Shown here one piece after another: positions 1-15,685 of a stretch of 20,000 nucleotides of DNA. The position numbers and the translations under genes are program-made. Numbering within the stretch: the first letter of the stretch is position 1; each line of letters begins with the position of its first letter. The DNA is taken from the IMG/VR virus record IMGVR_UViG_3300032295_002297; one strand, given 5' to 3'. The stretch is from an uncultured virus (IMG/VR IMGVR_UViG_3300032295_002297). Its lineage: Duplodnaviria > Heunggongvirae > Uroviricota > Caudoviricetes. Below the pieces are notes generated by a model, which was not told where the DNA came from, searched no databases, and saw only the letters and a program-made list of their open reading frames with translations.

Positions 1-96
1 TATGTAAAAAATACTGATAGAATTTCCAATAATTTTGAAATTTTGACAAGTAGAATGTTAGAATATGATTTATATAATCTAAATAATTTTTTATGA
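1..96 (+). CDS. 3' end of an upstream gene (partial, hypothetical)
   Basis: Frame 1 is open from base 1 (YVKNTDRISNNFEILTSRMLEYDLYNLNNFL). It ends in TGA at 94-96, overlapping the next ATG (93-95) in an ATGA junction. Confidence 0.65.
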   Translation, partial: YVKNTDRISNNFEILTSRMLEYDLYNLNNFL

Positions 97-884
97 AAAA
101 TATAAATAATTTAATAGTATGTGGGGATTCATTCACAGAAGGACATGAGATGGGAGAAACTGCATCTTGGGCACATTGGACAGCTGATAGTTTAAATTTA
201 AAATTAATAAATTTAGCATCGGGCGGAATGAGTAACGAATGGATTTCATTACAAACCATATCATTTTTACAAAAAAATCCCCATCTATGGAATAATTCAG
301 TTGTGATAATAGCATGGACTGAAATGATGAGGCAAATGATTCATTTTGATGATATGGGTGGTAAAATTGGAAAATGGATTTGGAGTGCACAACCAAATGA
401 TTTTATATCAGATGATTGTGGTGAAGATACGCCCGGTTATTGGATATATAATAATAAAAATGCATTATATCCATTTTTTTCTGATTTAAATTGGGCATTG
501 ATGAAAACATATCAATCAATGTTAATGGTTAAAACATTTTGTGATGCTAAAGGTATTCCATATATGTTTTTTGATGCTGTAAATGATAATAAACTTTATT
601 TTGAAAATGAAAAGGTTTATATTAGAGATTATAAATTTGAAAAAGAAGAATTTAATTTAGATAGTTCATTGGATTTTGTAAAAAACATAGTTGATATTGA
701 TATGGTAAATTTACTATTTGATGAAAGATATGTAGATGTTGATGGGACACCTATTTTACAATTTATACACAAATGGGGAGATGAAAGATATTGTGAGGGT
801 AATTCAGGCCATACTAATGTAATAGGTGCAAAAGAAGTTTCAAAATATATAGTTAAACATTATGAGAGAATATACAATAAATGA
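93..884 (+). CDS. SGNH/GDSL-fold hydrolase or acyltransferase-like protein, paralogue 1
   Basis: N-terminal CGDSFT (block I Ser), NLASGGMSN (block II Gly) and C-terminal SGHTN (catalytic His). Confidence 0.8.
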   Translation: MKNINNLIVCGDSFTEGHEMGETASWAHWTADSLNLKLINLASGGMSNEWISLQTISFLQKNPHLWNNSVVIIAWTEMMRQMIHFDDMGGKIGKWIWSAQPNDFISDDCGEDTPGYWIYNNKNALYPFFSDLNWALMKTYQSMLMVKTFCDAKGIPYMFFDAVNDNKLYFENEKVYIRDYKFEKEEFNLDSSLDFVKNIVDIDMVNLLFDERYVDVDGTPILQFIHKWGDERYCEGNSGHTNVIGAKEVSKYIVKHYERIYNK

Positions 885-1494
885 TAGTTGGGATTGGGTT
901 ACTCATTTTGAAAATGAAATAGCATCGTATTGCTGTTCAAAACATGCTATTGCATGTGATTCAAACTCAAATGCAATCCGTTTGGTTTTACATTATTTGG
1001 ATATACAAAAAGAACAAATTACTATACCTGCTAAAACCTATGTATCAGTTCCAAATCAAATTATATTAAGTAATAATATACCTGTATTTGAAGATTATGA
1101 TTGGGATGGTATGTATAAATTAGGAAATGTCCCAATTGTAGATGCGGCAACCGCATTTTATGAAGATATGTATGACGGTGAAAACTATATGATATTATCA
1201 TTTCATTTTAAAAAGATTTTAAACATTGGGACTGGTGGTATGATACTAACCAATGATGATGAATTCAATGAATGGGCAAGACCTATGATATACGATGGTA
1301 GAGATAAAACCAAATTATATTCAGATGATGATTTCCAATGTGTGGGTTGGCATATGTATATGAGTCCAGAGCAAGCTAAAAGAGGATTGGAAATATTTCA
1401 TTCTGATAAAATAAAATCATTCAATCCACATTGTGGTGGTAGTTGGATGTATAAAGATTTAAGAGAGCAAAAAATATATAAAGATTACATTTAG
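862..1494 (+). CDS. Short DegT/DnrJ/EryC1/StrS-family PLP-dependent aminotransferase
   Basis: FENEIASY..SKHAIACDSNSNAIRL, ITIPAKTYVSV, VDAA (PLP Asp) and LSFHFKKILNIGTGGMILTND (PLP Lys motif). Only 210 aa. Confidence 0.85.
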   Translation: MREYTINDSWDWVTHFENEIASYCCSKHAIACDSNSNAIRLVLHYLDIQKEQITIPAKTYVSVPNQIILSNNIPVFEDYDWDGMYKLGNVPIVDAATAFYEDMYDGENYMILSFHFKKILNIGTGGMILTNDDEFNEWARPMIYDGRDKTKLYSDDDFQCVGWHMYMSPEQAKRGLEIFHSDKIKSFNPHCGGSWMYKDLREQKIYKDYI

Positions 1495-1497
1495 GTT

Positions 1498-3423
1498 TTG
1501 ATTAATAAGTTACAAATATCGTTCGTTCAACCAAATTTCAGACAAGGGCCTGGTGGAATAGCTGCATATTTACCATATAGTTGTGGTTTATTGTGGGCAC
1601 ATGCTCAAACTAATGATTTGGTTAGAGATGGTATTAGACTTCATAGAATAATCTATAATAGAGAACCAATAAATGAATTGGCCACCGAATTATCTAAAAT
1701 GGATATAGTTGCATTTTCAACTTATGTATGGAATCGTAATTATAACTTTACATTGGCTAAAAAGATAAAAGAAATCAATCCAAACGTATTGGTAATATTT
1801 GGAGGACCAGAACCACCAATTACGGATTCCGAAATCTTTACTAAATGGATGCCATTTGCGGATTTGATTGTTAAAAGTGAAGGTGAGTTTATATTCACAA
1901 ACGTTTTAGAAAGTAGAGTAATAGGTAGATGGTATGATTTAATACCCGGCTTACTTATTAACGTAAATGGTGAGGTTTTAAATACCGGAAACGCCCTTCG
2001 TATTGAAACATTGGATGATGTTCCATCTCCATATCTAACGGGTGTATTTGACGATATAATGCCATTGGAAAACGAATGGAATGGAACATTGGAAACCAAT
2101 AGAGGGTGTCCATATAAGTGCACCTTTTGTGATTGGGGTTCTTTAACTTATAGTAAGGTAAAACAATTTGGTTTGACTAGAGTATTCCACGAATTAGAAT
2201 GGATGGCTGATAATAAGATAGGTTATTTGGATGTGGCTGATGCAAACTTTGGTATATTCGTTGAAAGGGATAATATGATCGTGGATAAACTAATAGAAGT
2301 TCAGAAAAGAACGGGTTATCCATATAGAACGGGATGGAGTTGGGCTAAAAATCAAAAATCTGAAGTAGTTGCAATAGCTAAAAAGTTAATTAATAGTGGT
2401 CACTTCAATAATGGATTAACTATTAGTTTACAATCATTAGATGAGAACACTTTAAAAACAATTAAACGAAGTAATTTAGGTATTAATAAAATATCAGATA
2501 TATTTGAGGAGTGTAGAATGATGGGAGTTCCTCTAAACACCGAATTAATCATTGGATTGCCTGGCGAAACATTGGAAAGTTGGACAGATACGATGTTTGG
2601 TGTGTTAGAAGTGGGACAGCATGATAGTATCGAAGCATGGCAGGCTCAAATATTGGAAAATGCGGAAATGAATCTATCACAAAGAGAATCTCACACAATT
2701 AGAGGACAATATGTGTATGATTATTTCCCCAATGCTTCGGATGATGAAGCACCTGAACATAGTGAGATAGTTGTATCAACATCTACTATGGATATTGATG
2801 AAATGATAGAGGCTTATAAGTTATCTTGGTTTTTAATAACTTGGCATACGGGTGGATTTTCTCAAATAGCTGCCAGATTCATTAGAAAGTATAAAGGTGA
2901 TACATATAAGGAATTTTATACTAAATTTAGAGAGTTTTTGAAATCGGATTCATTTTGGAAAGAGGAAGAGAATACTCTTAGTGAGATTATGATGAATTGG
3001 TTTGATAAAGGTGAGAGAATTGATACTATAGTAGGGCCGGTTCGTATAAACGCATCTACAAATCAATATAGAACCCTATTTAGAGTTCATTCCGATGAGA
3101 AGTATGAACATATGTATGATTTATTGGCTAGATTTATTGATACATACGAATTACCATCAGATATTACACATGATTTACTAATGTTAAACAAATGTGTGGT
3201 AGCTGAGCAAAGAAATTTAATAGATTATTCATTTAATATGAATTATAATTTATTGGAATATATTATAGATATGGATTCCCAATTAAACGAGGAAGAAACT
3301 ACTATAAAAATAACATATCCGCATGACCCAATTAGAAGTAAGGATTTGGCATGGTTTATGGAGAGCTTATTCTTTGCAAGAAGAAGAAGTTTTGGTAAAA
3401 ACTTTTTAGAAACGATAAAATAG
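1498..3423 (+). CDS. Cobalamin (B12)-binding domain radical SAM protein
   Basis: N-terminal B12-binding-type segment DIVAFSTYVWN...KKIKEINPNVLVIFGGPEP; ETNRGCPYKCTFCDWG (CxxxCxxC); DANFG; SLQSL...IKRSN; ELIIGLPGET. TTG start 3 nt after the previous stop. Confidence 0.9.
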   Translation: MINKLQISFVQPNFRQGPGGIAAYLPYSCGLLWAHAQTNDLVRDGIRLHRIIYNREPINELATELSKMDIVAFSTYVWNRNYNFTLAKKIKEINPNVLVIFGGPEPPITDSEIFTKWMPFADLIVKSEGEFIFTNVLESRVIGRWYDLIPGLLINVNGEVLNTGNALRIETLDDVPSPYLTGVFDDIMPLENEWNGTLETNRGCPYKCTFCDWGSLTYSKVKQFGLTRVFHELEWMADNKIGYLDVADANFGIFVERDNMIVDKLIEVQKRTGYPYRTGWSWAKNQKSEVVAIAKKLINSGHFNNGLTISLQSLDENTLKTIKRSNLGINKISDIFEECRMMGVPLNTELIIGLPGETLESWTDTMFGVLEVGQHDSIEAWQAQILENAEMNLSQRESHTIRGQYVYDYFPNASDDEAPEHSEIVVSTSTMDIDEMIEAYKLSWFLITWHTGGFSQIAARFIRKYKGDTYKEFYTKFREFLKSDSFWKEEENTLSEIMMNWFDKGERIDTIVGPVRINASTNQYRTLFRVHSDEKYEHMYDLLARFIDTYELPSDITHDLLMLNKCVVAEQRNLIDYSFNMNYNLLEYIIDMDSQLNEEETTIKITYPHDPIRSKDLAWFMESLFFARRRSFGKNFLETIK

Positions 3424-3427
3424 GATT

Positions 3428-4339
3428 ATGAAACATATATTATGCACGGGTTGTTCATTTACAAAGAATGTTAGGTTTAATCCCGATGCACCATTCAATC
3501 AAGGACCAGAGGATAGATATTCTTGGCCATATTACTTACAAAAAGAGTTGGGTGATGATGTATTGGTGTATAATTTGGGTGGAGCTACAAACGATAACGT
3601 TTCGATGTGTAGAATTATCTTTTATTGGATAAAAAAACTGATTAAGGAAGGAGTTGATGTAAAAGATATACATACAATCATCCAATGGTCAGACCCAACT
3701 AGACAATCTATATACATTACTAATAATAATCCTATAGAAATTATTGAAAAAGCTCATACACTTATGTATTGGGAAAATTGGAGAGAGGAAAATGCGTTAT
3801 TCTTTTTAACGGGTGGATATGCACCGCCGGATGATGCTTTGGCTGGGTTGGGTATTGATAACGCAGTAAAGTATTGGGAGTTGGAAGTAAATTGGGATAA
3901 CATTCTTAATCAAACAATCAGTTGGTTAGAGGCCTGGTCTCATTTGGTATTATTTTGTGACAAAAACGGAATTCAACATAATTATATGAGTATGAGGAAT
4001 CCATATTCATACGAAGCCAGAGAAGTTTTATTTGGAGCACCTGAAAACAATTCGGATATACCAACAAAAACAATATGGTTTGATAAGCATGAGATTCTTA
4101 AACCATATATTAACGAATTACCAATTGATAGTAAACTACATTGGCATTATAAAAATTACAATGGTTTATTAGAATGGACAATTGATAATTGTGAAGATAT
4201 TTTACCATTTCAGGAATCAAACGGATTATCATATAGTGAATATCTAAAAATACAACCAAATGGTTGGGGGCACCCATCACCTCAAATGATGGAAAAGTTT
4301 ATTAAAACGGAATTACTAAAGAATTTAAATATTAACTAA
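3428..4339 (+). CDS. SGNH-fold protein, paralogue 2 (GCS variant of GDS)
   Basis: CTGCSFT, SWPYYLQKEL, NLGGATNDN, IIQWSDPTR and C-terminal WGHPS. Confidence 0.75.
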   Translation: MKHILCTGCSFTKNVRFNPDAPFNQGPEDRYSWPYYLQKELGDDVLVYNLGGATNDNVSMCRIIFYWIKKLIKEGVDVKDIHTIIQWSDPTRQSIYITNNNPIEIIEKAHTLMYWENWREENALFFLTGGYAPPDDALAGLGIDNAVKYWELEVNWDNILNQTISWLEAWSHLVLFCDKNGIQHNYMSMRNPYSYEAREVLFGAPENNSDIPTKTIWFDKHEILKPYINELPIDSKLHWHYKNYNGLLEWTIDNCEDILPFQESNGLSYSEYLKIQPNGWGHPSPQMMEKFIKTELLKNLNIN

Positions 4340-4343
4340 AGTT

Positions 4344-5201
4344 ATGAAAATACATTGTTTTGGAGATAGTTGGACAGATGGTATAGGGGTTGAGTGGGCG
4401 CCTGGTATGGGTGCTATACCTTCGGCTGATAAGTATGATAAAGATTGGGATAGTGAAAAAAACAAATATTCTTGGCCAGGGCAACTTCAATCTTTGGTTG
4501 GAAATAATTTTATTGTAAAAAATAAAGGAATTTGTGGTTACTCTAATGATGAAATTTATAAAGAAATTATACAATCTATATGGAATGGAGAAATCCAATC
4601 AGGTGATTTAGTTATAACATCATTATCATCAATTATAAGACAACCATTGCATTTTTTATATACACAGCATGGTGTTGATGGATTCACCAGCTATTCAAAT
4701 GCAGTTTTTATGCATTATAAGAAGGGCTTTATGAATGATAAATTAAATTGGATTGAGAGTATAGAAAATGAAAAAATAAAAGATATAACACACGATGTAT
4801 ATATGGATTATATTGTAAATCGATTTGATTATGATTTACTATATGAAATGAATATGAATTATATTTGTAATTTACAAATTTATTTTGAAAAATTGGGAGT
4901 ATCTTATTTATTCACTAATGCATTTGAACAAAATTTATCAAAAACTATTTCCTTTCATAATCAAATAAAATTGGAACATTGGATAATGCCAGATTATAGT
5001 TTTCAGGAGTATTTGCTGGATGAATCAAAAAAAATAGATACTAAAAAACTTGGTTATTCTGTTTGGGAAGATGATATAATTAATGTAGAAAAAAATCAAG
5101 ATGGTCCGCATCCAAATAGAATAGGATATAAAATTATAGCTGAATTGGTATATTCGGAAATAGTAAAAAGAAAAATATTAAAAGATGCAAGTATTATATA
5201 G
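4344..5201 (+). CDS. SGNH-fold protein, paralogue 3
   Basis: CFGDSWTDG, SWPGQL, NKGICGYSN and canonical DxxH in DGPHPNRIGYKIIAE. Confidence 0.85.
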   Translation: MKIHCFGDSWTDGIGVEWAPGMGAIPSADKYDKDWDSEKNKYSWPGQLQSLVGNNFIVKNKGICGYSNDEIYKEIIQSIWNGEIQSGDLVITSLSSIIRQPLHFLYTQHGVDGFTSYSNAVFMHYKKGFMNDKLNWIESIENEKIKDITHDVYMDYIVNRFDYDLLYEMNMNYICNLQIYFEKLGVSYLFTNAFEQNLSKTISFHNQIKLEHWIMPDYSFQEYLLDESKKIDTKKLGYSVWEDDIINVEKNQDGPHPNRIGYKIIAELVYSEIVKRKILKDASII

Positions 5202-5910
5202 TCACGGTGATTCTGTAGTGTGGGGAGCTGAATTAGAAAATAAAAAAATAGAAAGATTTTCACATCATATTTCTAAGAAATTGGGTTTGATGGATTGTAA
5301 CAACGCATCTGCAGGAGTATCGAATGATTACATTTACAGACATACCATACGAGATGTTTCCCATTGGTTAAAAAATGGAGTTGTATGGAGTGAAGATGTG
5401 GGATGGGTATCTGCATCTAATCTTATAGTAGTGATAGGTTGGACTGCTCCTACTCGATTTGAATGGTGGGATGGTAATAAATACCAACAAGAAAGATTGT
5501 GGGTTGGATATGATAAATGGGGTGAGCCTGATAAAGATAGGACAACTGAAGATCAATTTGTTTTAAACCAAACTTCGGATATACCATCATATATCAGAAC
5601 ATTTAATCATATTATTTCCTTATCTGCGTTTTTAGAAAAACACAATATATCATATTATTTCTTCAATAGTTTTTACGAATACAAACTCCCAAAAGAACCA
5701 ACTGATTTAATCGATAATTATGGTAAACCGCATTTTCAGTTAGATTTACATTCATTATGGTCACAATTACCAGATGAATTTACATTTGGTAATATGTATG
5801 ATTATATAAAATTTATGGGTGAAGGATTTTTACCACGTAATCACCCAACAAAAGAAGCCCATAAAGAATGGAGTGAATTTTTAATAAAAGAAATAGATGA
5901 AAGAAATTAA
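5185..5910 (+). CDS. SGNH-fold protein, paralogue 4
   Basis: HGDSVVWGAEL, NNASAGVSN, VIGWTAPTR and RNHPTKEAHKEW. Confidence 0.8.
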   Translation: MQVLYSHGDSVVWGAELENKKIERFSHHISKKLGLMDCNNASAGVSNDYIYRHTIRDVSHWLKNGVVWSEDVGWVSASNLIVVIGWTAPTRFEWWDGNKYQQERLWVGYDKWGEPDKDRTTEDQFVLNQTSDIPSYIRTFNHIISLSAFLEKHNISYYFFNSFYEYKLPKEPTDLIDNYGKPHFQLDLHSLWSQLPDEFTFGNMYDYIKFMGEGFLPRNHPTKEAHKEWSEFLIKEIDERN

Positions 5911-6856
5911 AAAAAATACTAGGCTTACATTGTTATCTGATATTTTTTGTTATAAAGCAAAAGATTTTTATCTTTTAACAATTCCAAAAATAGCATCTTC
6001 GTGGGCTTATCAGTTATTTTTACATAACAAAGGGTTGAGAGATGTTCCGATTGAAGAAATTTATAAAAATGAAAAAAATACTGTTGATATTAATCAATTA
6101 AATTTTACAATACCACAATATGATGAAGAATTATCATTTGATGTATGTTCATTTACAAAAGATTGGAATCTATTATTGGAAAATAAATCTAACATTGATT
6201 TTATTTTTTTAATGAGAGACCCAATAAGTAAATTTACTACGGGAGTAATGCAAGATGTAATTTTTAATAATTTTAGTATGAGTTCACCTCATATTATAGA
6301 AATATTGGAAAAGTATCCAAATAAAGAAGAACTTAATCAATTTTATCAATTTAATAAATCTAAAATTACGGATGAAAATGAAGAATGGTGGAATATTTTA
6401 GATTTAAATTGGGATATTGCTATATACAATGTAATGTTTTTTATTGTAGAAAATATAATAGACAATTGGATAACAAATATAGAAAATATAATAGAATATA
6501 GAAAAGGACATAAAAATATGAACTTATTTTTTTATTATAAATTACTTTTTAATTCAAACATTGATAAAACTAAAATAAAAATTTTGGATATTGATAAAGA
6601 AAATACATACGATTATTTAATAAATAAATACAATTTAACTCTAACCAATTTGGAATCAAAATATAAATTCAATGAAACTGCATCTATATTTAAAAAGATT
6701 ATTAAAAAATCAATGTTAAAACATGAAGAACTTATGAGTTCAATTTTTTATGTAGATCTATTATTATATTGTGATATACATAATTATTTATATTTGGAAC
6801 AAATAACTCCTGAAAAAGTTTGGTTTGATAGTTTATTAAAATATAGAAATGAATAA
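5897..6856 (+). CDS. Divergent sulfotransferase-like protein
   Basis: LLTIPKIASS resembles the 5'-PSB loop (xIPKxAST). IFLMRDPISKFTTG resembles the 3'-PB motif (RDPxxRxxS), with substitutions. Confidence 0.5.
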   Translation: MKEIKKNTRLTLLSDIFCYKAKDFYLLTIPKIASSWAYQLFLHNKGLRDVPIEEIYKNEKNTVDINQLNFTIPQYDEELSFDVCSFTKDWNLLLENKSNIDFIFLMRDPISKFTTGVMQDVIFNNFSMSSPHIIEILEKYPNKEELNQFYQFNKSKITDENEEWWNILDLNWDIAIYNVMFFIVENIIDNWITNIENIIEYRKGHKNMNLFFYYKLLFNSNIDKTKIKILDIDKENTYDYLINKYNLTLTNLESKYKFNETASIFKKIIKKSMLKHEELMSSIFYVDLLLYCDIHNYLYLEQITPEKVWFDSLLKYRNE

Positions 6857-8534
6857 AGATAAATATATAATAGGAATATCAGCATTTTACCACGATTCAT
6901 CAGCATGTCTATTTAAAAATGGTAAATTAATGTTTGCTTGTGAAGAAGAACGATTTAGTGGAATAAAGCATGATAGTTCATTTCCAAAACATACTATAGA
7001 GTATATTTTAACCAAATATAAACTTAGTAAAGAAGATATACATGCGGTTTGCTATTATGAAGAACCTAAATTGAAATTTAAAAGAGTTTGGGACAATTTT
7101 AAAACAAACTTTTTTAAAGCACCAATTCATGTAACCAAATCTTTGGTTGAAATAACATCAAATAAAGTAAAAATACATAAATTACTTAAAACAATATCCG
7201 ATAATGTGTTTTATTCAGAACACCATAAATCACATTTATACTATTCTGTGGCTACATCTGATTTTTTAGAGTCGGATGTAATTTCAATTGATGGTGTTGG
7301 TGAGATTGATACCATATCGTATGGATTGCATAAAGAAAAGGTAATAAAATATAAAAGTTTAGCACAATATCCCCATTCTTTAGGATTATTCTATTCAGCT
7401 ATGACATCTTACTTAGGATTCAAACCAAATGAGGGAGAATATAAAGTAATGGGGTTGGCATCGTATGGTTCTAAAAGTAAATACACCAAATTAGTAGGAT
7501 CTTTAGTTAGATTTGGGGCTGGTAGGTTAAATTGCGATATGGATAAGTTTTGTTGGGATAGAGATGATAAATTAATGTTTAATCATAAGTTAATTGAACA
7601 TTTGGGTATCCTACCTAGAGATTCGCATGAACCAATTACCGCAGAACACGAAGATTTGGCATACGCAGTTCAGCAAGTGTATGAGGATGTTTTCTTTGCT
7701 ATCCTAAATCATATAAGTTCTCAAAGTAAAAACACAAATTTGTGTTTAAGTGGTGGATGTGCATATAATGGAACGGCAAATGGTAAGATAACTAAAAACA
7801 CAAATTACAAAAAACTATGGATACCATCCGCACCATCTGATGCTGGTTCTTCGATTGGAGCATGTATTAATTATCTTATCCAAACTGATGATACTTTTAA
7901 AGGAAAGGTTACTAGAAATCCATTTTTAGGACCTGAATATGGATATGGTAAGGTTGTGGAAACGATAAACCCATCTAAAATTGTAAGATATAATAGTGAA
8001 GAGGACTTATTAAGTAAAGTGGCAGAGGAACTACATAATGAGAAGGTAGTTGGGTGGTTTTATGGAAGTATGGAGTTTGGTGCTAGGGCTTTGGGCAATC
8101 GTTCAATCCTTGCATCACCTCTAAAAGCGGAAATGAAAGATAAAATCAATAAAGTGATTAAAAAGAGGGAAGGATTTAGACCATTTGCACCTATGGTATT
8201 GCAAGATGTGCAAGATAAATACTTCGAAACCAATGGAGATGTTCCATATATGAATCAAGTGGTTAATGTTAGAACGGAATATCAGAAAACATTAGGAGCT
8301 GTAACTCATGTGGATGGAACGGCAAGAATTCAAACCATATTTACTACATCAAATAATAGAATATACAGATTACTACGAAAATATGAAAAGTTAAGTGGGT
8401 ATCCAATACTTTTGAATACATCATTTAATGTAAAGGATAAAACTATGGTTTTAACGCCAGAGGATGCTCTGGAAACCTTCTACGATACGGAAATGGATGT
8501 GTTGGTTTTGGGTAATTATATTGTTTACAAATAA
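6849..8534 (+). CDS. O-carbamoyltransferase (NodU/CmcH/TobZ family)
   Basis: GISAFYHDSSACL, EEERFSGIKH, EHHKSH, DGVGE, EYKVMGLASYG, LSGGCAYN, PSAPSDAGSSIGA, EFGARALGNRSILA, IKKREGFRPFAP, HVDGTARIQT and LLNTSFN. Confidence 0.95.
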   Translation: MNKDKYIIGISAFYHDSSACLFKNGKLMFACEEERFSGIKHDSSFPKHTIEYILTKYKLSKEDIHAVCYYEEPKLKFKRVWDNFKTNFFKAPIHVTKSLVEITSNKVKIHKLLKTISDNVFYSEHHKSHLYYSVATSDFLESDVISIDGVGEIDTISYGLHKEKVIKYKSLAQYPHSLGLFYSAMTSYLGFKPNEGEYKVMGLASYGSKSKYTKLVGSLVRFGAGRLNCDMDKFCWDRDDKLMFNHKLIEHLGILPRDSHEPITAEHEDLAYAVQQVYEDVFFAILNHISSQSKNTNLCLSGGCAYNGTANGKITKNTNYKKLWIPSAPSDAGSSIGACINYLIQTDDTFKGKVTRNPFLGPEYGYGKVVETINPSKIVRYNSEEDLLSKVAEELHNEKVVGWFYGSMEFGARALGNRSILASPLKAEMKDKINKVIKKREGFRPFAPMVLQDVQDKYFETNGDVPYMNQVVNVRTEYQKTLGAVTHVDGTARIQTIFTTSNNRIYRLLRKYEKLSGYPILLNTSFNVKDKTMVLTPEDALETFYDTEMDVLVLGNYIVYK

Positions 8535-8538
8535 TTTG

Positions 8539-8547
8539 ATATTTATA
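8539..8547 (+). promoter_or_regulatory. ATATTTATA motif, copy 1 (candidate late promoter)
   Basis: Intergenic, 17 nt before the ATG at 8565; recurs before the next four genes. Confidence 0.55.
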
Positions 8548-8564
8548 TATACAAATAGAATAAT

Positions 8565-8930
8565 ATGGCTCAAATAAATTGGACAATCAGACAATTAGAA
8601 AGACACATTGTAAATGGTATCGTTACAAGAGTGTATTGGAAGTGTGAAGTTATAGATGGTATTTTTACAGCAGCTGCACAAGATGTTGTGACTATTTGTG
8701 ATGATTTAAGCACAGTTGATACTAATGCTGCTGAGTTTACACAATTTGAAAACCTAACTGAATCACAATTAGTTGATTGGGTTAAGGGTAAACTTGGAAA
8801 TGAGGAGGTAACAAACATAGTTAATGGATTAACCTATAATATAGATATTCAAAAGGATTACGCTACTAACTTTGTATATGGATTACCTTGGGAAGAGACT
8901 GTGACTGAAGAAGAAACAACCGAATCTTAA
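8565..8930 (+). CDS. Small acidic phage protein, possibly tail-fibre associated
   Basis: 121 aa with INWTIRQLER..NGIVTRVYW...FTQFENLTESQLVDWVKGKLG...GLPW, a pattern I associate with small phage proteins near fibre genes. It has its own upstream motif. Confidence 0.6.
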   Translation: MAQINWTIRQLERHIVNGIVTRVYWKCEVIDGIFTAAAQDVVTICDDLSTVDTNAAEFTQFENLTESQLVDWVKGKLGNEEVTNIVNGLTYNIDIQKDYATNFVYGLPWEETVTEEETTES

Positions 8931-9009
8931 GAATAGGATACACTAAATAATACTAATAGATTCCCAATACGATATTTTGAAAAAAAATTGTGTTTTGGGG
9001 ATTTCCCTT

Positions 9010-9018
9010 ATATTTATA
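9010..9018 (+). promoter_or_regulatory. ATATTTATA motif, copy 2
   Basis: Intergenic, 59 nt before the sheath ATG. Confidence 0.55.
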
Positions 9019-9077
9019 TGTGTATTTTGTTTGGAAGTACACGGAATTAAAATATAATAACAAATATATAAATAACA

Positions 9078-11396
9078 ATGGCAGAAAGAATCGTATCACC
9101 TGGTGTTTTTACAAGAGAAAATGACCTATCCTTCTTAGCGCAAGGAGTTGGTGAAATTGGAGCAGCATTTATTGGACCTTTTAAGCAAGGACCGGCATTT
9201 ATTCCAACAATCGTAAGAACTCAATCAGAATTCGAAGATATCTTCGGAACACCCGATGGAACATATTACACAGAATATGCAGTTCAAAACTATTTAAGAG
9301 AAGCGGGAACGGCCACCATCGTAAGAGTTGGTGGTATTGGTGGTTATAGACAACCACAACCTTTCGCTTTGAGAATTACTGGTTCGGCAACTAACACAGG
9401 AATTGATGGTAGAATATTTGCAGTATTATTCGCTACGGGTTCTAACAATCAAACTACAGGATTCACAGGATCTATTTCAGCAAGCCAACTATCTGATAGT
9501 TCATCTTTTGAAATAAACAACGCGGGTATAATGGGAAGCTCTTATACATTAAATTTATTACCAACATCAACAAATGATGTTAGTGATGTATTTGGTGAAT
9601 CTCCATTTGGAACTAAAGCACCATATACTTACGCATATTTTGAAAACTACGCAGCAACATTAAGTGGGGCGGATTATGGTATTCAAAGAGTTACTATCCC
9701 AACACAAGATTTCAGATACGATATTACACACGCTTCAACACCTTGGGTTCAATCTCAAACAGGAAGTGCACAAGACCCGGCAAGCGATTTATTCCGTTTC
9801 CACACAATTGGTGATGGAACAATCTATAACACAAAATACAAAATCGGTATTTCTGGTGTTAAAGCAGCTGGTGAAGATGGTTCAACTGATTATTCTGTAT
9901 TCACTGTAACTGTAAGAGCATTTAGTGATAGTGATAGAAGAAAGGTAGTTTTAGAAACATTTAACAATGTAAACTTAGACCCTGCTTCTCCAAACTTTAT
10001 AGCTAGAGTAATTGGTGATAGAAATGTAACTATTGATTCTGATGGTAAAATTACTGAAAATGGTGATTATTCAAATAAATCAAAATATATTAGAGTTGAA
10101 GTAAAAGAGCAAGGCACGTATCCAATATCAGCAATGCCATTTGGACACTCAGCATATTATTCTCCAATTGATGATGGACAAAATGGTGCATTATTACCAG
10201 GTGTTCAATATTCAACCGGTTCTAAAGATAACACAACATCTTCAACTATTAAATTTAGTGGTTTAGATTTAGAATCTACATCATACAAAATTGATAACGC
10301 TCAATTCTTAAAACCAATACCTACTGGAGTAACCGGAAGAACTTCAAACGCATTTTCATTTAACAATTCACCATTCAGCTATGTTCCAACAGGTTCAGCA
10401 GCGGTGGATATGGCTAAGAGACAAATGATTTTATATTTCCAAGAAGGTTTTGATGGATTAAATCCAATTATTAAGCCAGCATTAGGAACAGGTATTTCAG
10501 CGGCTAACGCACAAGGACTTGATTGTTCAACTTCAATAGCAAGTGGTTCGGTGGGATACGCTAAAGCAATCGCAGCGGTATCTAACCCTGATGAATATGA
10601 TATTAACATGGTAGTAACTCCAGGTATCGTTAGAAGATTACACTCTAATGTAACTGATAGAGTTATTGATATGGTAGAAGCTAGACAAGATGCATTCTAC
10701 ATCGCTGATTTCAACGGAGCAGGTGATACAATCACACAAGCAACTGATGAAGCATCTTTAGTAGATTCAAACTATGTTGGAACTTACTATCCTTGGGTTA
10801 AGACTATCGATGGTAACACAAACAAATTAACTTCAGTTCCTCCATCAACTTTATTACCAGCAGTATTTGCAGCTAACGATAGATTGGCAGCAGAGTGGTT
10901 CGCACCAGCAGGTTTAAATAGAGGTGGTATTACGGGAGCAGTTTCAGTATTGAATAGATTAACACACTCTGAAAGAGATACTTTATACGAAGCAAAAGTA
11001 AACCCAATCGCTGTATTCCCTGGACAAGGTATTGTAGCATACGGACAAAAAACATTGCAAGATAGAGCATCGGCATTGGATAGAATCAACGTAAGAAGAT
11101 TACTTATCACTGTTAAGAAGTTCGTAGCATCTACATCTCGTTTCTTAGTATTCGAACAAAATACTTCAGAGACTAGAACTAGATTCTTAAACACTGTTAA
11201 CCCTTACTTTGAAGCAATTCAACAAAGACAAGGACTTTACGCATTCAATGTGGTAATGGATGAATCTAACAACACACCTGATGTTATCGATAGAAACATT
11301 ATGGCTGGACAGATTTTCTTACAACCAACAAAGACTGCAGAATTTATAGTTATTGATTTCAACATCTTACCAACTGGAGCAACATTCAGCGCATAA
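9078..11396 (+). CDS. Contractile tail sheath protein (T4 gp18-like)
   Basis: N-terminal SPGVFTRENDLS and GPFKQGP; C-terminal YYPWVK, VPPS, WFAPAGLNRG, LYEAKVNPI, GQKTLQ..SALDRINVRRLL, FEQN and PTKTAEFIVIDF. Confidence 0.97.
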   Translation: MAERIVSPGVFTRENDLSFLAQGVGEIGAAFIGPFKQGPAFIPTIVRTQSEFEDIFGTPDGTYYTEYAVQNYLREAGTATIVRVGGIGGYRQPQPFALRITGSATNTGIDGRIFAVLFATGSNNQTTGFTGSISASQLSDSSSFEINNAGIMGSSYTLNLLPTSTNDVSDVFGESPFGTKAPYTYAYFENYAATLSGADYGIQRVTIPTQDFRYDITHASTPWVQSQTGSAQDPASDLFRFHTIGDGTIYNTKYKIGISGVKAAGEDGSTDYSVFTVTVRAFSDSDRRKVVLETFNNVNLDPASPNFIARVIGDRNVTIDSDGKITENGDYSNKSKYIRVEVKEQGTYPISAMPFGHSAYYSPIDDGQNGALLPGVQYSTGSKDNTTSSTIKFSGLDLESTSYKIDNAQFLKPIPTGVTGRTSNAFSFNNSPFSYVPTGSAAVDMAKRQMILYFQEGFDGLNPIIKPALGTGISAANAQGLDCSTSIASGSVGYAKAIAAVSNPDEYDINMVVTPGIVRRLHSNVTDRVIDMVEARQDAFYIADFNGAGDTITQATDEASLVDSNYVGTYYPWVKTIDGNTNKLTSVPPSTLLPAVFAANDRLAAEWFAPAGLNRGGITGAVSVLNRLTHSERDTLYEAKVNPIAVFPGQGIVAYGQKTLQDRASALDRINVRRLLITVKKFVASTSRFLVFEQNTSETRTRFLNTVNPYFEAIQQRQGLYAFNVVMDESNNTPDVIDRNIMAGQIFLQPTKTAEFIVIDFNILPTGATFSA

Positions 11397-11454: not shown

Positions 11455-11943
11455 ATGGCAGAAGTATTAGAGTTTGATAAGATGTTCTATACGAACTTCG
11501 AACCGAAGATGAAGAATAGATACGTGATGGAAATCGATGGTATCCCTTCTTACTTAGTAAAAGCAGCAGCTCGACCTTCAATTCAATTTGAAACTATTGT
11601 GTTAGATCACATCAACATCAAAAGAAAATTACAAGGCAAGGGAGATTGGCAAGATATAAATATCACATTATACGATCCAATTGTTCCATCAGGAGCACAA
11701 TCGGTAATGGAATGGGTTCGTTTAGGACACGAATCTATTACTGGTAGAAGAGGCTACGCTGACTTCTATAAGAAAGATATTACTTTCTATATGTTAGGAC
11801 CTGTGGGTGATAAAATTGAACAATGGACTATTAAAGGTGCATTTATTCAATCCGCTAACTTTGGTGATTTATCGTTTGATTCTAATGAACCTGCAACAAT
11901 TGAATTAACTTTATCTTACGATTACGCAATCTTAGAATTCTAA
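11455..11943 (+). CDS. Tail tube protein (T4 gp19-like)
   Basis: 162 aa directly after the sheath, with EPKMKNRY, WQDINITLYDPI, YKKDITFYMLGPVGDKIEQWTIKGAF and IELTLSYDYA. Confidence 0.93.
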   Translation: MAEVLEFDKMFYTNFEPKMKNRYVMEIDGIPSYLVKAAARPSIQFETIVLDHINIKRKLQGKGDWQDINITLYDPIVPSGAQSVMEWVRLGHESITGRRGYADFYKKDITFYMLGPVGDKIEQWTIKGAFIQSANFGDLSFDSNEPATIELTLSYDYAILEF

Positions 11944-11973: not shown

Positions 11974-12003
11974 AACCCTCATCAGAAATGGTGGGGGTTT
12001 TTT
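11974..12003 (+). terminator. Intrinsic terminator after the tube gene
   Basis: 11-bp stem AACCCTCATCA / TGGTGGGGGTT (two G-U pairs) with a GAAA tetraloop, followed by a T run. Confidence 0.85.
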
Positions 12004-12057: not shown

Positions 12058-12813
12058 ATGACAGAACAAACATACGATTTTCCAACCGAAGTGTTGGATT
12101 TACCATCAAAAGGATTGGTTTACCCAAAAGAACATCCATTGGCATCAGGTAGAATTACAATAAAGTATATGACTGCAAAAGAGGAAGATATCCTATCCAG
12201 CCAAAACCTTATCAAAAAAGGTATTGTATTGGATAAGTTGTTTGAATCTATCATTGTGGATAAAATCGATGCTAAAGATATTGTAATTGGTGACAAGAAC
12301 GCTATTATTTTAGCAACTCGTTTATTGGGATACGGGCCTGATTATTCAATGAAATTTTATTCAAGTGTAACGGGTGATAGTATTCAAACTGTAGTTGATT
12401 TATCTAAGGTTCAAACAAAAGAAGTTGATTTTTCTTTATTTAAAAACAAAAATGAGTTTGAATTCACTACTCCATTGGGAAAGAATAAATTAACTTTTAA
12501 GTTATTGACACATGGTGATGAATTGGCAGTAGAAAAGGATATCCAAGCTCTTGAAAAATTAAATAAAGATGGTTCTTTTGAAATTACTACAAGATTGAGA
12601 TATATGATTAAATCAGTAGATGGTAATTCTGATATATCTGCAATTAACAAGTATATTACTGGAATGTTGGCTAGAGATAGTAAAGCACTAAGGGATTATG
12701 TAAAGAATATATCTCCTGATATGGATATGACCTTTGAATATACCCATCAAACGGGAGAGGTGGAGGCTCTACCCATCACAATGGGAGTAAACTTTTTTTG
12801 GCCTACCGAGTAA
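12058..12813 (+). CDS. Baseplate hub/tail assembly chaperone (T4 gp26-like)
   Basis: LDLPSKGLVYP, IKYMTAKEEDIL, IVIGDKNAIILATR..GYG and MLARDSKALRDYV; ends NFFWPTE. Lies between the tube and tape measure genes. Confidence 0.8.
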   Translation: MTEQTYDFPTEVLDLPSKGLVYPKEHPLASGRITIKYMTAKEEDILSSQNLIKKGIVLDKLFESIIVDKIDAKDIVIGDKNAIILATRLLGYGPDYSMKFYSSVTGDSIQTVVDLSKVQTKEVDFSLFKNKNEFEFTTPLGKNKLTFKLLTHGDELAVEKDIQALEKLNKDGSFEITTRLRYMIKSVDGNSDISAINKYITGMLARDSKALRDYVKNISPDMDMTFEYTHQTGEVEALPITMGVNFFWPTE

Positions 12814-13015
12814 TCACACAATAAACATTCACACTCAGATATTTGAGATGTGCAACTATGGAAATGGGTTTAATGTTATGGATTTATACCATATGCCGGT
12901 TCATTTAAGGAATTTTTACTATAGAAAATTAGTAGAAGCTAAAGAAAAGGAAAATGAACAAATTAAAAAATCCAAATCATCACCAAATTCATCTAAAGTT
13001 AGGATTAAAAGATAA
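12791..13015 (+). CDS. Overlapping +1 frame absent from the ORF track; probable frameshift extension of the chaperone (gp51/gpT-like)
   Basis: The frame opens after TAA 12788-12790 and reads TFFGLPSNHTINIHTQIFEMCNYGNGFNVMDLYHMPVHLRNFYYRKLVEAKEKENEQIKKSKSSPNSSKVRIKR to TAA 13013-13015. Its first ATG is at 12848 (55 aa). Confidence 0.75.
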   Translation, partial: TFFGLPSNHTINIHTQIFEMCNYGNGFNVMDLYHMPVHLRNFYYRKLVEAKEKENEQIKKSKSSPNSSKVRIKR

Positions 13016-13031
13016 TCCTAACTTTTTTTTT
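12995..13031 (+). terminator. Intrinsic terminator overlapping the stop of the +1 frame
   Basis: Perfect 13-bp inverted repeat AAAGTTAGGATTA / TAATCCTAACTTT with a 5-nt loop, running into a T9 tract. Confidence 0.85.
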
Positions 13032-13315: not shown

Positions 13316-15685
13316 ATGGCTGATACTAAAGGTGCAAATTTAAAAGAAGCTCTAGCGGCTGAAAAGGAAATTCTTAGATTAGAAACTGAGATAGATCAAC
13401 TTGCCGAGAAAAAAGGTAAAAGAGCAGAAAAACAATTAGCCACTGCTCAAAAAGATCTTGCCACAAAAAAAGCAGTTTTAGCTAATAGTAAAGCATACTC
13501 CGAATATCAAAAAAAGATAAATAAAGATACCGAAGCATTTGGTAAATCTTGGACAAAGCTAAGTAGTGCAGTTCAAAAAAACTTAGGCGGAACTAACAGA
13601 AATGCAACAGTATATTCATCTATAAGCACTAAAATAATAGCATTAGAAGCAAAACAAGCCGGATTGACTGGTGATGAATTGGATGCCAATATGGAAATGG
13701 TTTCCAGATTAAGAGAACAAGGTGATAGTTTATTACAACAGGCCAAAACAACAGCAACGGCTGAAGCTAAAGCTAGGGGTATGAATGATATCGCAATAAA
13801 AAGAAAGGAGTTAGAAGAAGAAATAACTAAAGCTAAAGAAGAGGGTAATGAGGAATTAAGAGAAGCTTTAGAATTAGAAAAGGAAGCGTTAGAACTTAAA
13901 GAAAAATTAGAGAAAAAAGAAAATAGATTATCATCTATAGCCGAATCTCAGAAAGATATAATGGATGCGTTGCCAGATGGTCTTAAAAATGGTATAGGAT
14001 TTGCGCAAAAATTAGGAACTACTATGCAAACCGCAGGAGCAGCGGCTGCAGGTTTTATGTTATTAGCAACTGTTGTAGTGGCAACATTATCTAGTTTTAC
14101 CAAATTGGATGAAGCTGCTGGTGAATTTGCAGAAAAAACAGGAAAAACCAATACCCAAATGCAGGGTATTCGATCCGATGCCAATGAAATAGTTGGAGAA
14201 TTTGGAGATTTGGGTATAGAAGCAAAGAATGTATTTGATACCGCAGCAGCGTTATCATCAGAATTTAGTGATATAGCATCTTTTTCAAAAGAAACAACAG
14301 CAGCTCTAACTGTATTAAGTGCAAACTTTGGAGTATCAGCTGAAGCAGCTGCAAAAGTTCAATCTCAATTTGAAGCAATAGGTGGATTATCATCCGAAAC
14401 TGCAGCAAATGTTCAATTACAGGTGGCAAATATGGCAAATCTTGCCGGAGTTGCACCTGCAAAAGTATTTGAAGATATAGCAGAAAACGCAGAAGCAACC
14501 TCAACATTTTTCAAAGGGGATTTAACTGCATTAACCCAAAACGCTATTCAGGCTAGAAGAATGGGAACTTCTCTTAAAGAGCAAGTTGCTTTAGCTGAAA
14601 AACTTTTGGATTTTGAAAGTGGTATTGAGGAAGAATTAGTAGCAGCAACATTTGTAGGTGGTCAATTCAACTTAGGTAGAGCTAGGGCATTGGCAATGGA
14701 AGGAAAACTTGCTGAAGCAAATGAAGAAACCCTAAAACAAATTCAAAGAAGTGGTGATTTCCGAAAGCAAGATTACTTTACACAACAACAATTAGCCAAA
14801 GCGGCTGGTATGAGTGTTGAAGAAATAAACAAACAATTAAATGCTCAAGATAAACTTAATAGTTTAACTGCCGAACAAAAGAAAGCAGCAGAAGATGCTA
14901 TCAGTAAAGGATTAGATATTACAAATATAAATGCAGACCAATTAGCACAAGAAACTGAAAAGTTTTCTAAACAACAAGAACAACAACAACAATTAGAACA
15001 ATTAAATAATGCTTTTACTGGGATAGCATCTACAGTTGGAACTGTTCTTACTCCATTATTATCGGCATTGATACCTATTATGAAATTAATATTATTTCCT
15101 GTTCAATTGATAGCCGAAGGTTTTAAATTTTTAGGTGAAAATTTAGCAATAGCTATTCCATTGGCTGGAGCATTGGCAATTGCATTTGCGCCAGCAATTA
15201 TAGCAGCTATTAGTACGGCAATTGGATTTATTATGAGTTCATTTGCAATGATACCATTTGGTATTGGTATTCCATTGGGTATTCTGGCAGTTGCTGGATT
15301 ATTTAGTATGATATCAAAAGCTAAAGCAGTTGGTGATATGTATTCACCTGCGGATGGTAGAACTCAAATATCAACCAAAGAAGGTGGATTATTTGAATTA
15401 TCACCAAATGATGACTTAGTAGCGGCACCTGGAGCAGCAGCTGCTTTGGAACAAGCGGGAAATATGGATGGCGGTGCAACTACATTAGTTGATAGTAAAT
15501 CATCTCCTAATTTAGCAGCACTATCGGCACCACTTAATGCAATGATTAATGAAATAAAAGCTCTAAGAGCGGACTTAAATAGTGGAAAAATAGCAGTTTA
15601 TATGGATACTGCAAAAGTTACGGCAAATATCTCAACAAATGTTGACCAAGGAACGAGAAATTCATATAATTTAGGTTCAGCTTAA
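13316..15685 (+). CDS. Tail tape measure protein
   Basis: 789 aa, Ala/Glu/Gln-rich and helical, with an N-terminal coiled coil and hydrophobic Gly/Ala segments near the C-terminus. Positioned after the tube and chaperone genes. Confidence 0.85.
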   Translation: MADTKGANLKEALAAEKEILRLETEIDQLAEKKGKRAEKQLATAQKDLATKKAVLANSKAYSEYQKKINKDTEAFGKSWTKLSSAVQKNLGGTNRNATVYSSISTKIIALEAKQAGLTGDELDANMEMVSRLREQGDSLLQQAKTTATAEAKARGMNDIAIKRKELEEEITKAKEEGNEELREALELEKEALELKEKLEKKENRLSSIAESQKDIMDALPDGLKNGIGFAQKLGTTMQTAGAAAAGFMLLATVVVATLSSFTKLDEAAGEFAEKTGKTNTQMQGIRSDANEIVGEFGDLGIEAKNVFDTAAALSSEFSDIASFSKETTAALTVLSANFGVSAEAAAKVQSQFEAIGGLSSETAANVQLQVANMANLAGVAPAKVFEDIAENAEATSTFFKGDLTALTQNAIQARRMGTSLKEQVALAEKLLDFESGIEEELVAATFVGGQFNLGRARALAMEGKLAEANEETLKQIQRSGDFRKQDYFTQQQLAKAAGMSVEEINKQLNAQDKLNSLTAEQKKAAEDAISKGLDITNINADQLAQETEKFSKQQEQQQQLEQLNNAFTGIASTVGTVLTPLLSALIPIMKLILFPVQLIAEGFKFLGENLAIAIPLAGALAIAFAPAIIAAISTAIGFIMSSFAMIPFGIGIPLGILAVAGLFSMISKAKAVGDMYSPADGRTQISTKEGGLFELSPNDDLVAAPGAAAALEQAGNMDGGATTLVDSKSSPNLAALSAPLNAMINEIKALRADLNSGKIAVYMDTAKVTANISTNVDQGTRNSYNLGSA

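Follow-up and report, generated by a model that had tools for sequence, protein, structure and literature searches.

Glycosylation of viral structures by enzymes that the virus itself encodes is already known from giant viruses and from mycobacteriophages. In the Megavirinae, clustered viral genes for sugar-nucleotide enzymes, an aminotransferase and glycosyltransferases have been proposed to glycosylate the surface fibrils without recourse to host glycosylation (PMC10117803). Virion proteins of mycobacteriophages are modified in the cytoplasm by phage-encoded glycosyltransferases (Freeman et al. 2023, as summarized in PMC12619734). Here we describe an island of 41 genes in a very large, uncultured tailed phage from fresh water (Caudoviricetes; IMG/VR record IMGVR_UViG_3300032295_002297), the last eight of which occupy positions 93-8534 of the 20,000-nt stretch that was analysed (the window; positions 52170-72169 of the 72,169-bp contig, G000). 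The Megavirinae infect eukaryotes, whereas this is a huge phage whose island is known from its genes alone. Compared with the Megavirinae clusters, the island adds a B12 radical S-adenosylmethionine (SAM) enzyme, twitch-domain radical SAM enzymes, a sulfotransferase-fold protein, a carbamoyltransferase and seven SGNH-like proteins. The mycobacteriophage systems reportedly comprise few glycosyltransferase genes and modify the C-termini of capsid and tail-tube proteins; here, in contrast, there is a full predicted sugar-tailoring pathway and the presumed acceptor is a collagen-like fibre. The locus is thus unusual in its size, its chemistry and the novelty of its enzymes. A literature search for such an island found no description within the collection searched, and sugar-coated fibres have not yet been shown for any phage of this kind.

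Two further systems bear on the locus. A phage carbamoyltransferase acting on 5-hydroxymethylcytosine (5hmC) pairs with a thymidylate-synthase-like gene within 3 kb, and the MetaGPA paper also reports that carbamoyltransferases on unmodified contigs adjoin glycosyltransferases and names residues W408, G421 and R423 as discriminating among carbamoyltransferases (PMC8670742). That enzyme is phage-encoded and belongs to the same two-domain family as g49, the last gene of the island, but its thymidylate-synthase-like partner has no counterpart on this contig. In Bacillus anthracis, the collagen-like exosporium glycoprotein BclA carries O-linked deoxy-amino-sugar oligosaccharides on its Gly-X-Thr repeats, which depend on a dedicated operon. 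BclA is bacterial whereas the fibres considered here are viral, and the likeness of their collagen-like repeats may be taken as a lead only.

The island and its proposed pathway

All 59 open reading frames (ORFs) of the contig lie on the + strand, and its CheckV completeness of 16% implies a genome of roughly 450 kb. A packed block of 41 ORFs in 36.6 kb begins at contig position 24113, and the eight window genes, g42 to g49, make up its last fifth. A first-pass annotation, made from the letters of the window alone, had presented these eight as a dedicated cluster. Its description of co-oriented, tightly packed genes agrees with the ORF listing, which places all eight on the + strand with overlaps of 23, 17, 14 and 8 nt and gaps of 3, 4 and 4 nt. 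It was also right that the cluster stops just short of the tail genes: the ORFs, together with the Pfam and PHROG annotation downstream, leave 30 nt between the end of g49 (8534) and the next gene start (8565). Its enzyme calls (four SGNH-fold proteins, a DegT-type protein, a B12 radical SAM enzyme, a sulfotransferase-like protein and a carbamoyltransferase) hold as well, with moderate support in the case of the sulfotransferase and with g46 called SGNH-like from a motif and sub-threshold matches. The start at position 93, however, is a false edge. The preceding gene overlaps the first of the eight by 4 nt and the block extends 28 kb further upstream; rather than a unit of their own, the eight genes are the 3′ end of the 41-gene block and have no promoter-like motif to themselves.

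The genes directly 5′ of the island encode a chaperone of tail-fibre assembly and fibre proteins in which Pfam recognizes Collagen and Peptidase_S74 domains. Two of the fibre proteins are giants with long collagen-like repeats (Table 1), and Pro is not among the eight commonest residues at either position of these GTS/GSS repeats. Within the island, families were called with Pfam and NCBIfam, and PHROG was consulted as well for statements of absence. The glycosyltransferases comprise an Anp1-like protein, a Glyco_tranf_2_4 (GT2-like) protein and two proteins that join GT7N/7C to a Laminin_G_3 (LamG) domain. Enzymes that could supply and reshape sugars include three short-chain dehydrogenase/reductase (SDR) proteins of the Epimerase/GDP_Man_Dehyd type, an RmlC-like 3,5-epimerase (dTDP_sugar_isom), a thiamine pyrophosphate (TPP) enzyme split into E1_dh and Transket_pyr halves, a PhyH and a 2OG-FeII_Oxy_3 oxygenase, and an ADI-like (arginine-deiminase/amidinotransferase-like) protein. 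A Methyltransf_24 protein and two twitch-domain radical SAM enzymes (NCBIfam, 323 and 354 bits) are also present. In the same island as these and the third radical SAM enzyme is a gene with a weak match to the C-terminal part of MetK (contig 45842-46795; L007 6843-7796), at E 1e-6 and far under the cut-off.

Such clustering of viral glycosyltransferases with sugar-nucleotide enzymes is one mark of autonomous virion glycosylation. The first-pass annotation had pointed upstream for glycosyltransferases, nucleotide-sugar enzymes and fibre genes; Pfam finds all three there, and because they are there its reading of the genes as a decorated-glycan pathway is supported. That the glycan is destined for a virion protein, the other part of that reading, we infer. 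The proteins of the island appear to be soluble: 40 of the 41 lack a 19-residue hydrophobic segment, and the single marginal case (g28, 1.73) has its segment inside a TPP domain. No Pfam, NCBIfam or PHROG match was obtained for a flippase, a polymerase, a polyprenyl-phosphate transferase or an AT3/MBOAT partner for the SGNH proteins, nor for an exporter or a self-resistance gene. A search of the 52 kb upstream of the window turned up no tRNA gene.

The explanation that we favour, with about even weight on either side, is that the Ser/Thr-rich, collagen-like fibres of the phage itself receive a heavily decorated glycan, which the enzymes of the island would assemble on them in the cytoplasm of the infected cell. 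In such a pathway, nucleoside diphosphate (NDP)-hexoses from the host would be reworked by the three SDR epimerase/dehydratase-like enzymes and the RmlC-like 3,5-epimerase, the split E1-like pair would add a two-carbon branch, and the oxygenases and amidinotransferase-like protein may introduce further changes. The short DegT protein g43 would aminate a keto-sugar, probably together with a partner of the g41 family, and g44 would carry out C-methylation. The Anp1-like, GT2-like and two GT7-LamG glycosyltransferases would attach the sugars to the (Gly-Thr-Ser)n fibres. The window genes would then account for late tailoring steps, in which the four SGNH proteins may add or remove O-acyl groups, g48 may perform O-sulfation with 3′-phosphoadenosine-5′-phosphosulfate (PAPS), and g49 may carbamoylate a sugar hydroxyl by way of carbamoyl-AMP. 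We advance only tentatively, as a possibility that is rather less than probable, a fuller picture in which huge freshwater phages would dress mucin-like (Gly-Thr-Ser)n collagen fibres in a branched, aminated, C-methylated, acylated, sulfated and carbamoylated glycan, using a self-contained, membrane-free pathway of 41 genes that draws on enzyme families with no described member, namely the g41 family and the G-C-S variant of the SGNH proteins.

Enzymes encoded in the window

The carbamoyltransferase g49 matches Carbam_trans_N and Carbam_trans_C at 195.5 and 222.3 bits (Pfam cut-offs 24 and 27; E 1e-57 and 1e-66), and scores 165.9 bits against the NodU equivalog model of NCBIfam, which requires 1000. 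Judged by these scores it is a member of the NodU/CmcH-type family and not NodU itself. Residues 13-559 give a full-length alignment with NovN (PDB 9s2t, E 4e-82), and GdmN (7vyj) and TobZ (3ven) are also matched, the nearest solved relatives being sugar or natural-product O-carbamoyltransferases. NovN and TobZ carbamoylate sugar hydroxyls. NovN, GdmN and TobZ sit in bacterial antibiotic clusters, whereas g49 sits in the structural region of a phage.

The g44 protein matches Radical_SAM at 39.3 bits (Pfam cut-off 29.5), with a CPYKCTFC (CxxxCxxC) motif at residue 204, and its match to an N-terminal B12-binding domain falls just short of threshold (30.1 bits against a cut-off of 32.1). Against the KedN5 family model NF033712 it reaches 233.4 bits, where the cut-off is 700, over model positions 16-394 of 624. 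We describe it as a radical SAM enzyme, probably of the cobalamin type, and predicted C-methyltransferase. Among GenBank phages it has just two weak matches, at about 23% identity, and a scan of bacterial and archaeal genome contigs found no relative. In one distant relative, two copies of the B12 radical SAM gene lie 2.4 kb apart (L021, 7880-9775 and 12224-14095). One of the island's twitch radical SAM proteins, g18, has a single match in GenBank phages, at 38% in Ralstonia phage RsoM2USA, and none in Campylobacter phages. In RsoM2USA, a cultured jumbo phage (L029, 203342-232694), a gene resembling SDR sugar epimerases separates the sheath gene from the tube gene; the twitch radical SAM gene lies about 5 kb further on, and all of these are annotated as hypothetical.

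At 210 residues, g43 is far shorter than the two-domain architecture of about 360-400 residues expected for a DegT protein, although its match to the family is clear (73 bits against a Pfam cut-off of 19.8; E 3e-20). Compared with perosamine synthetase it retains D-A-A and S-F-H-x-x-K, which we take to be the Asp motif and the pyridoxal phosphate (PLP) Lys, and lacks the C-terminal domain; residues of the solved relatives beyond about 245 are unmatched, and about 40 residues fewer separate its two aligned blocks. D94-A-A and S113-F-H-x-x-K118 are invariant in all five aligned relatives. We considered that g43 might be a truncated pseudogene and rejected the idea, because its relatives (66-81% identical) keep both the catalytic motifs and the short length, at 209-227 residues. 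On this comparison g43 is a conserved minimal DegT variant and not a broken gene.

A candidate partner for g43 is offered by the family of g41, the gene that precedes the window's eight, which has four paralogues in the island (g20, g21, g33 and g41; contig 33606-36447, 44703-45842 and 51051-52265). At E<=0.001 this very large family runs to 14,184 representative clusters, and it has no described member; 25 of the 150 listed members were scanned, and no credible Pfam family was found for 23 of these, while many relatives are tandem fusions. In one relative, P0203, a short DegT domain that is 62% identical to g43 over 209 residues is naturally fused to a g41-family domain, and another member carries a sub-threshold Methyltransf_24 match. 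Because of this fusion, and because g41-family and g43 genes are adjacent in two related contigs (G002 and G003), the truncated aminotransferase probably works with a g41-family partner.

All four SGNH-like proteins of the window have a G-D/C-S motif within their first 13 residues, and seven such proteins are counted across the island once paralogue families are included. The g45 protein has no family match, and none of the 224 homologues in its family is named. Its AlphaFold model (pLDDT 79.8, pTM 0.85) matches GDSL/SGNH enzymes over its full length at Z 11.3-8.0; ranks 1-12 are taken up entirely by named esterases, lipases or O-acetyltransferases of the GDSL/SGNH type (Z 11.3-10.1, residues 1-303), so that the model places g45 in the SGNH/GDSL hydrolase fold. 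The others are approached through profiles. The g47 protein matches DUF6071 at 30.5 bits, above the cut-off of 27, whereas g42 falls under it at 19.2 bits; hhalign relates g42 to the g47 family at 96.1% and to the g45 family at 96.5%, and g47 to the g45 family at 95.3%. By these comparisons g42 and g47 are tied to the fold predicted for g45. The GDS-bearing g46 has sub-threshold matches to Lipase_GDSL (22.1 bits, cut-off 23.6) and PF13472 (16.7 bits), and hhalign gives only 14-23% to the other SGNH-like families. In GenBank phages g47 has a single match, at 25% in RsoM2USA.

For g48, support comes from its predicted structure. The model (pLDDT 86.4) returns sulfotransferases or their kin at ranks 1-23, with Z 7.8-4.3 over residues 22-310, before the first unrelated entry at Z 4.2; every Z is below 8, which makes the support moderate, and the ESM Atlas agrees with a sulfotransferase. 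Sequence searches of the PDB found no sulfotransferase, one of the 20 members of the g48 family matches Sulfotransfer_3 (E 0.14), and PF03567 gives no match at E<=10. K31, S34, S35, R107 and P109 are invariant in all 20 sequences; we presume that they correspond to the PAPS motifs, that is the Lys/Ser loop of the 5′-phosphosulfate-binding (5′-PSB) site and the Arg of the 3′-phosphate-binding (3′-PB) site. With moderate support, then, g48 may be called a sulfotransferase-fold protein. Sequence and profile searches of the PDB yielded nothing credible for the families of g47, g45, g46, g48 and g41. The g48 gene has the lowest guanine-cytosine (GC) content of the region, at 20.4%.

Relatives, structural neighbours and the shared upstream motif

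A search with g44 returned 16 IMG/VR loci. Several of these are cut short by contig ends. Five loci at 88-99% identity (L008-L012) have the gene order of the window, including the sheath neighbour; in four of them g48 is missing and, between flanking genes that show about 90% identity, g46 is replaced by an allele of 54-56%. A further three, at about 65%, carry the same genes in shuffled order. When a match must cover at least half of the query, g42, g43, g45, g47 and g49 are each found in 7-8 of the 16 loci, those at about 65% among them, g46 in five and g48 in one. Of the co-occurrence and synteny that the earlier annotation had proposed to test in relatives, the first is seen for gene content and the second in the close relatives only. 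Window positions 4344-6856 form a variable spot, and L009 has an extra g42-like gene inserted ahead of g46. In the relatives at about 65% identity (L014 12923-14281; L015 12770-13297), the genes that come after the island encode a P-loop kinase with weak matches to adenosine-5′-phosphosulfate (APS) kinase and to a cytidylyltransferase, and a QueC-like protein; these may bear on the supply of PAPS or of nucleotide sugars.

The argument from adjacency to the tail module stands in L008-L012 and fails in more distant contigs, as the sheath gene is absent from all four of the whole contigs G001-G004. Terminase, portal and capsid genes come after the island in G001, and kinase-like, QueC-like, subtilase and SNF2 genes do so in G002 and G003. 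On its other side, the island starts directly after an S74 fibre gene in four contigs of three lineages (G000, G001, G002 and G005), and in G003 there is an S74 match 5′ of the island, about 22 kb from L015. The G002 fibre is also (GTS/GSS)n, and Collagen-family matches occur on three of five related contigs. The conserved feature is thus the fibre gene directly 5′ of the island, and adjacency to the sheath is limited to the closest relatives.

The junction between the eight genes and the tail genes is no assembly chimera, since it is spanned, with 3-8 differences, by contigs from three other studies (7736-9140, 8097-9140 and 8082-8601), and five further IMG/VR assemblies bridge it too; this settles a doubt that the earlier annotation had raised. 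At least 62% of the words of the stretch occur in each of 18 DNA runs, which come from at least 12 studies. No RNA data set is listed for it, and two runs guessed to be RNA gave small pieces only, which have no bearing on expression. A megablast search of window positions 1-8600 against GenBank phages found no match. Downstream of the island, g50 (a DUF7936 protein) and the sheath, tube and baseplate hub genes (Table 1) are followed by genes for a tape-measure-like protein and for the baseplate wedge, and the DNA is therefore phage DNA. The sheath protein is best matched in GenBank by Microcystis phage Mel-JY01, at only 47% identity, and is 42.5% identical to that of an uncultured 484-kb phage. 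Strong hydrophobicity marks several segments of the tape-measure-like protein (window 13316-15685; residues 237-264 and 570-672), and strong terminator-like hairpins follow the tail tube gene (11974-11999) and the baseplate hub gene (12995-13025).

Table 1. Features of the island and its flanks (window coordinates unless the contig is named; aa, amino acids)
Feature	Coordinates	Strand	Remarks
Giant fibre protein	contig G000 7257-17249 (L003)	+	3330 aa; 954 residues of (Gly-Thr-Ser)/(Gly-Ser-Ser) collagen-like repeats
Giant fibre protein	contig G000 19350-24065 (L006)	+	1571 aa; 441 repeat residues; C-terminal Peptidase_S74 chaperone domain
g41, 3′ end	1..96	+	full gene at contig 51051-52265, 404 aa; four-paralogue family; 4-nt overlap with g42 start
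g42, SGNH-like protein	93..884	+	263 aa; GDS at residues 11-13; GH(T)N near C-terminus
g43, short DegT/DnrJ/EryC1-like PLP protein	862..1494	+	210 aa; Pfam 73 bits
g44, probable cobalamin-type radical SAM enzyme	1498..3423	+	641 aa; TTG start; predicted C-methyltransferase
g45, SGNH-fold protein (from model)	3428..4339	+	303 aa; G-C-S replaces G-D-S; paralogue of upstream g38 and g39
g46, GDSL/SGNH-like protein	4344..5201	+	285 aa; variable allele
g47, DUF6071 / SGNH-like protein	5185..5910	+	241 aa
g48, sulfotransferase-fold protein (moderate support)	5897..6856	+	319 aa; GC 20.4%; accessory gene
g49, O-carbamoyltransferase (predicted)	6849..8534	+	561 aa; both NodU/CmcH-type domains; PHROG 1601
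Promoter-like motif ATATTTAT	8539..8546	+	26 nt upstream of the g50 start, within the 30-nt gap
g50, DUF7936 protein	8565..8930	+	first gene past the island; adjoins sheath gene in close relatives
Tail sheath gene	9078..11396	+	Pfam, PHROG and GenBank matches
Tail tube	11455-11943	+	downstream of sheath
Baseplate hub	12058-12813	+	downstream of tube

A short upstream motif links the island with the structural genes. The 8-mer ATATTTAT has 13 copies on the + strand, ten of them in the 981 nt of intergenic DNA (window 8539, 9010, 11420, 12027 and 13037; contig 6275, 7229, 18634, 38969 and 41931), and it sits 24-68 nt ahead of fibre, sheath, tube and hub genes and of the island genes g25 and g29. 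An eleventh copy lies 70 nt ahead of the island gene g34, and the motif recurs ahead of fibre and head genes in relatives. By comparison, TATAAATA is not enriched between genes (2 of 11 copies), and sigma-70-like sites are no commoner than chance (78 found, 85.7 expected). ATATTTAT is probably a phage promoter element common to the structural genes and to sub-operons of the island. Because it has no copy within 93-8534, the eight window genes appear to be transcribed as the last part of a longer unit, which has its promoter-like signal in common with the structural genes and would be co-expressed with them; the copy at 8539 presumably shows where the last transcription unit of the island ends.

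Alternative products and biological meaning

Several observations weigh against glycosylation of the fibres. The glycosyltransferase matches are modest (29-68 bits, Pfam), and no sugar nucleotidyltransferase was found in the island by Pfam or NCBIfam. In G001 the island follows a fibre gene whose product lacks Gly-X-Y runs, and G004 has no S74 match. The link through ATATTTAT compares the island with structural genes only. The enzyme set also resembles antibiotic deoxysugar pathways, soluble enzymes would suit DNA or small-molecule products equally well, and the genome in hand, one 72-kb contig, is about 16% of the whole.

The island might instead remodel a surface glycan of the host, such as lipopolysaccharide (LPS), capsule or an S-layer glycan, and thereby block superinfection or prevent new virions from adhering to debris. 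Such an interpretation has been given to cyanophage genes for sugar-nucleotide enzymes and glycosyltransferases, and relatives of the island carry Glyco_transf_25 domains labelled 'LPS biosynthesis'. A lipid-linked host-surface glycan is disfavoured here because membrane-spanning segments (absent from 40 of the 41 proteins, marginal in one) and the membrane partners sought among the Pfam, NCBIfam and PHROG matches, from flippase to AT3/MBOAT, were not found. The position of the island among late structural genes, with an upstream motif in common, also speaks against it, and we regard this explanation as unlikely.

Hypermodification of the phage DNA, in which glycosylated and carbamoylated hydroxymethyl-pyrimidines would protect against host nucleases, had been one alternative of the first-pass annotation, and it is weakened by the search that it had proposed: the thymidylate-synthase family (PF00303, Thymidylat_synt) has no match in the 72-kb contig. 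The family is also absent from four of five related contigs. In G004, its lone member lies 7.3 kb from the carbamoyltransferase gene and on the other strand, and has PFNIASY and PPCH sequences that we take, by the Asn rule, to be the ordinary thymidylate-synthase form. The LamG-bearing GT7 enzymes, the seven SGNH-like proteins and the conserved fibre neighbour have no obvious role on DNA, and the ready assembly of the stretch from 18 DNA runs adds weak evidence to the same effect. On the other side, the enzymes of the island are soluble and about 16% of the genome was examined. The known phage 5hmC carbamoyltransferase is active on DNA and on 5-hydroxymethyl-dCTP (5hmdCTP) but has its partner gene within 3 kb (PMC8670742), and PMC12619734 cites viral glycosyltransferases that attach glycans to DNA. 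Taken together, DNA as the target seems decidedly unlikely. A free aminoglycoside-like or oligosaccharide metabolite directed at competitors or host defences is very unlikely, for although the nearest solved or curated relatives belong to antibiotic pathways (NovN, GdmN, TobZ and the KedN5-type radical SAM family) and the island has E1-like halves and an amidinotransferase-like protein of the kind typical of such pathways, it also has at least four Pfam-supported glycosyltransferases, two of them with lectin-like domains, a conserved linkage to fibre genes, and neither a membrane protein nor any Pfam, NCBIfam or PHROG match to an exporter or self-resistance gene.

Whatever its product, the island is a compact source of little-explored sugar-tailoring enzymes, including a soluble sulfotransferase-fold protein, a B12 radical SAM enzyme, seven SGNH variants and a minimal DegT protein with a candidate new partner domain. 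If the fibres are indeed its target, host recognition by lake phages, their stability in the environment and their evasion of grazers or host defences would hinge on a viral glycochemistry that has gone unmeasured. Autonomous viral glycosylation would then extend to huge phages, and in a form of much greater complexity than in the giant viruses and the few mycobacteriophages from which it is known.

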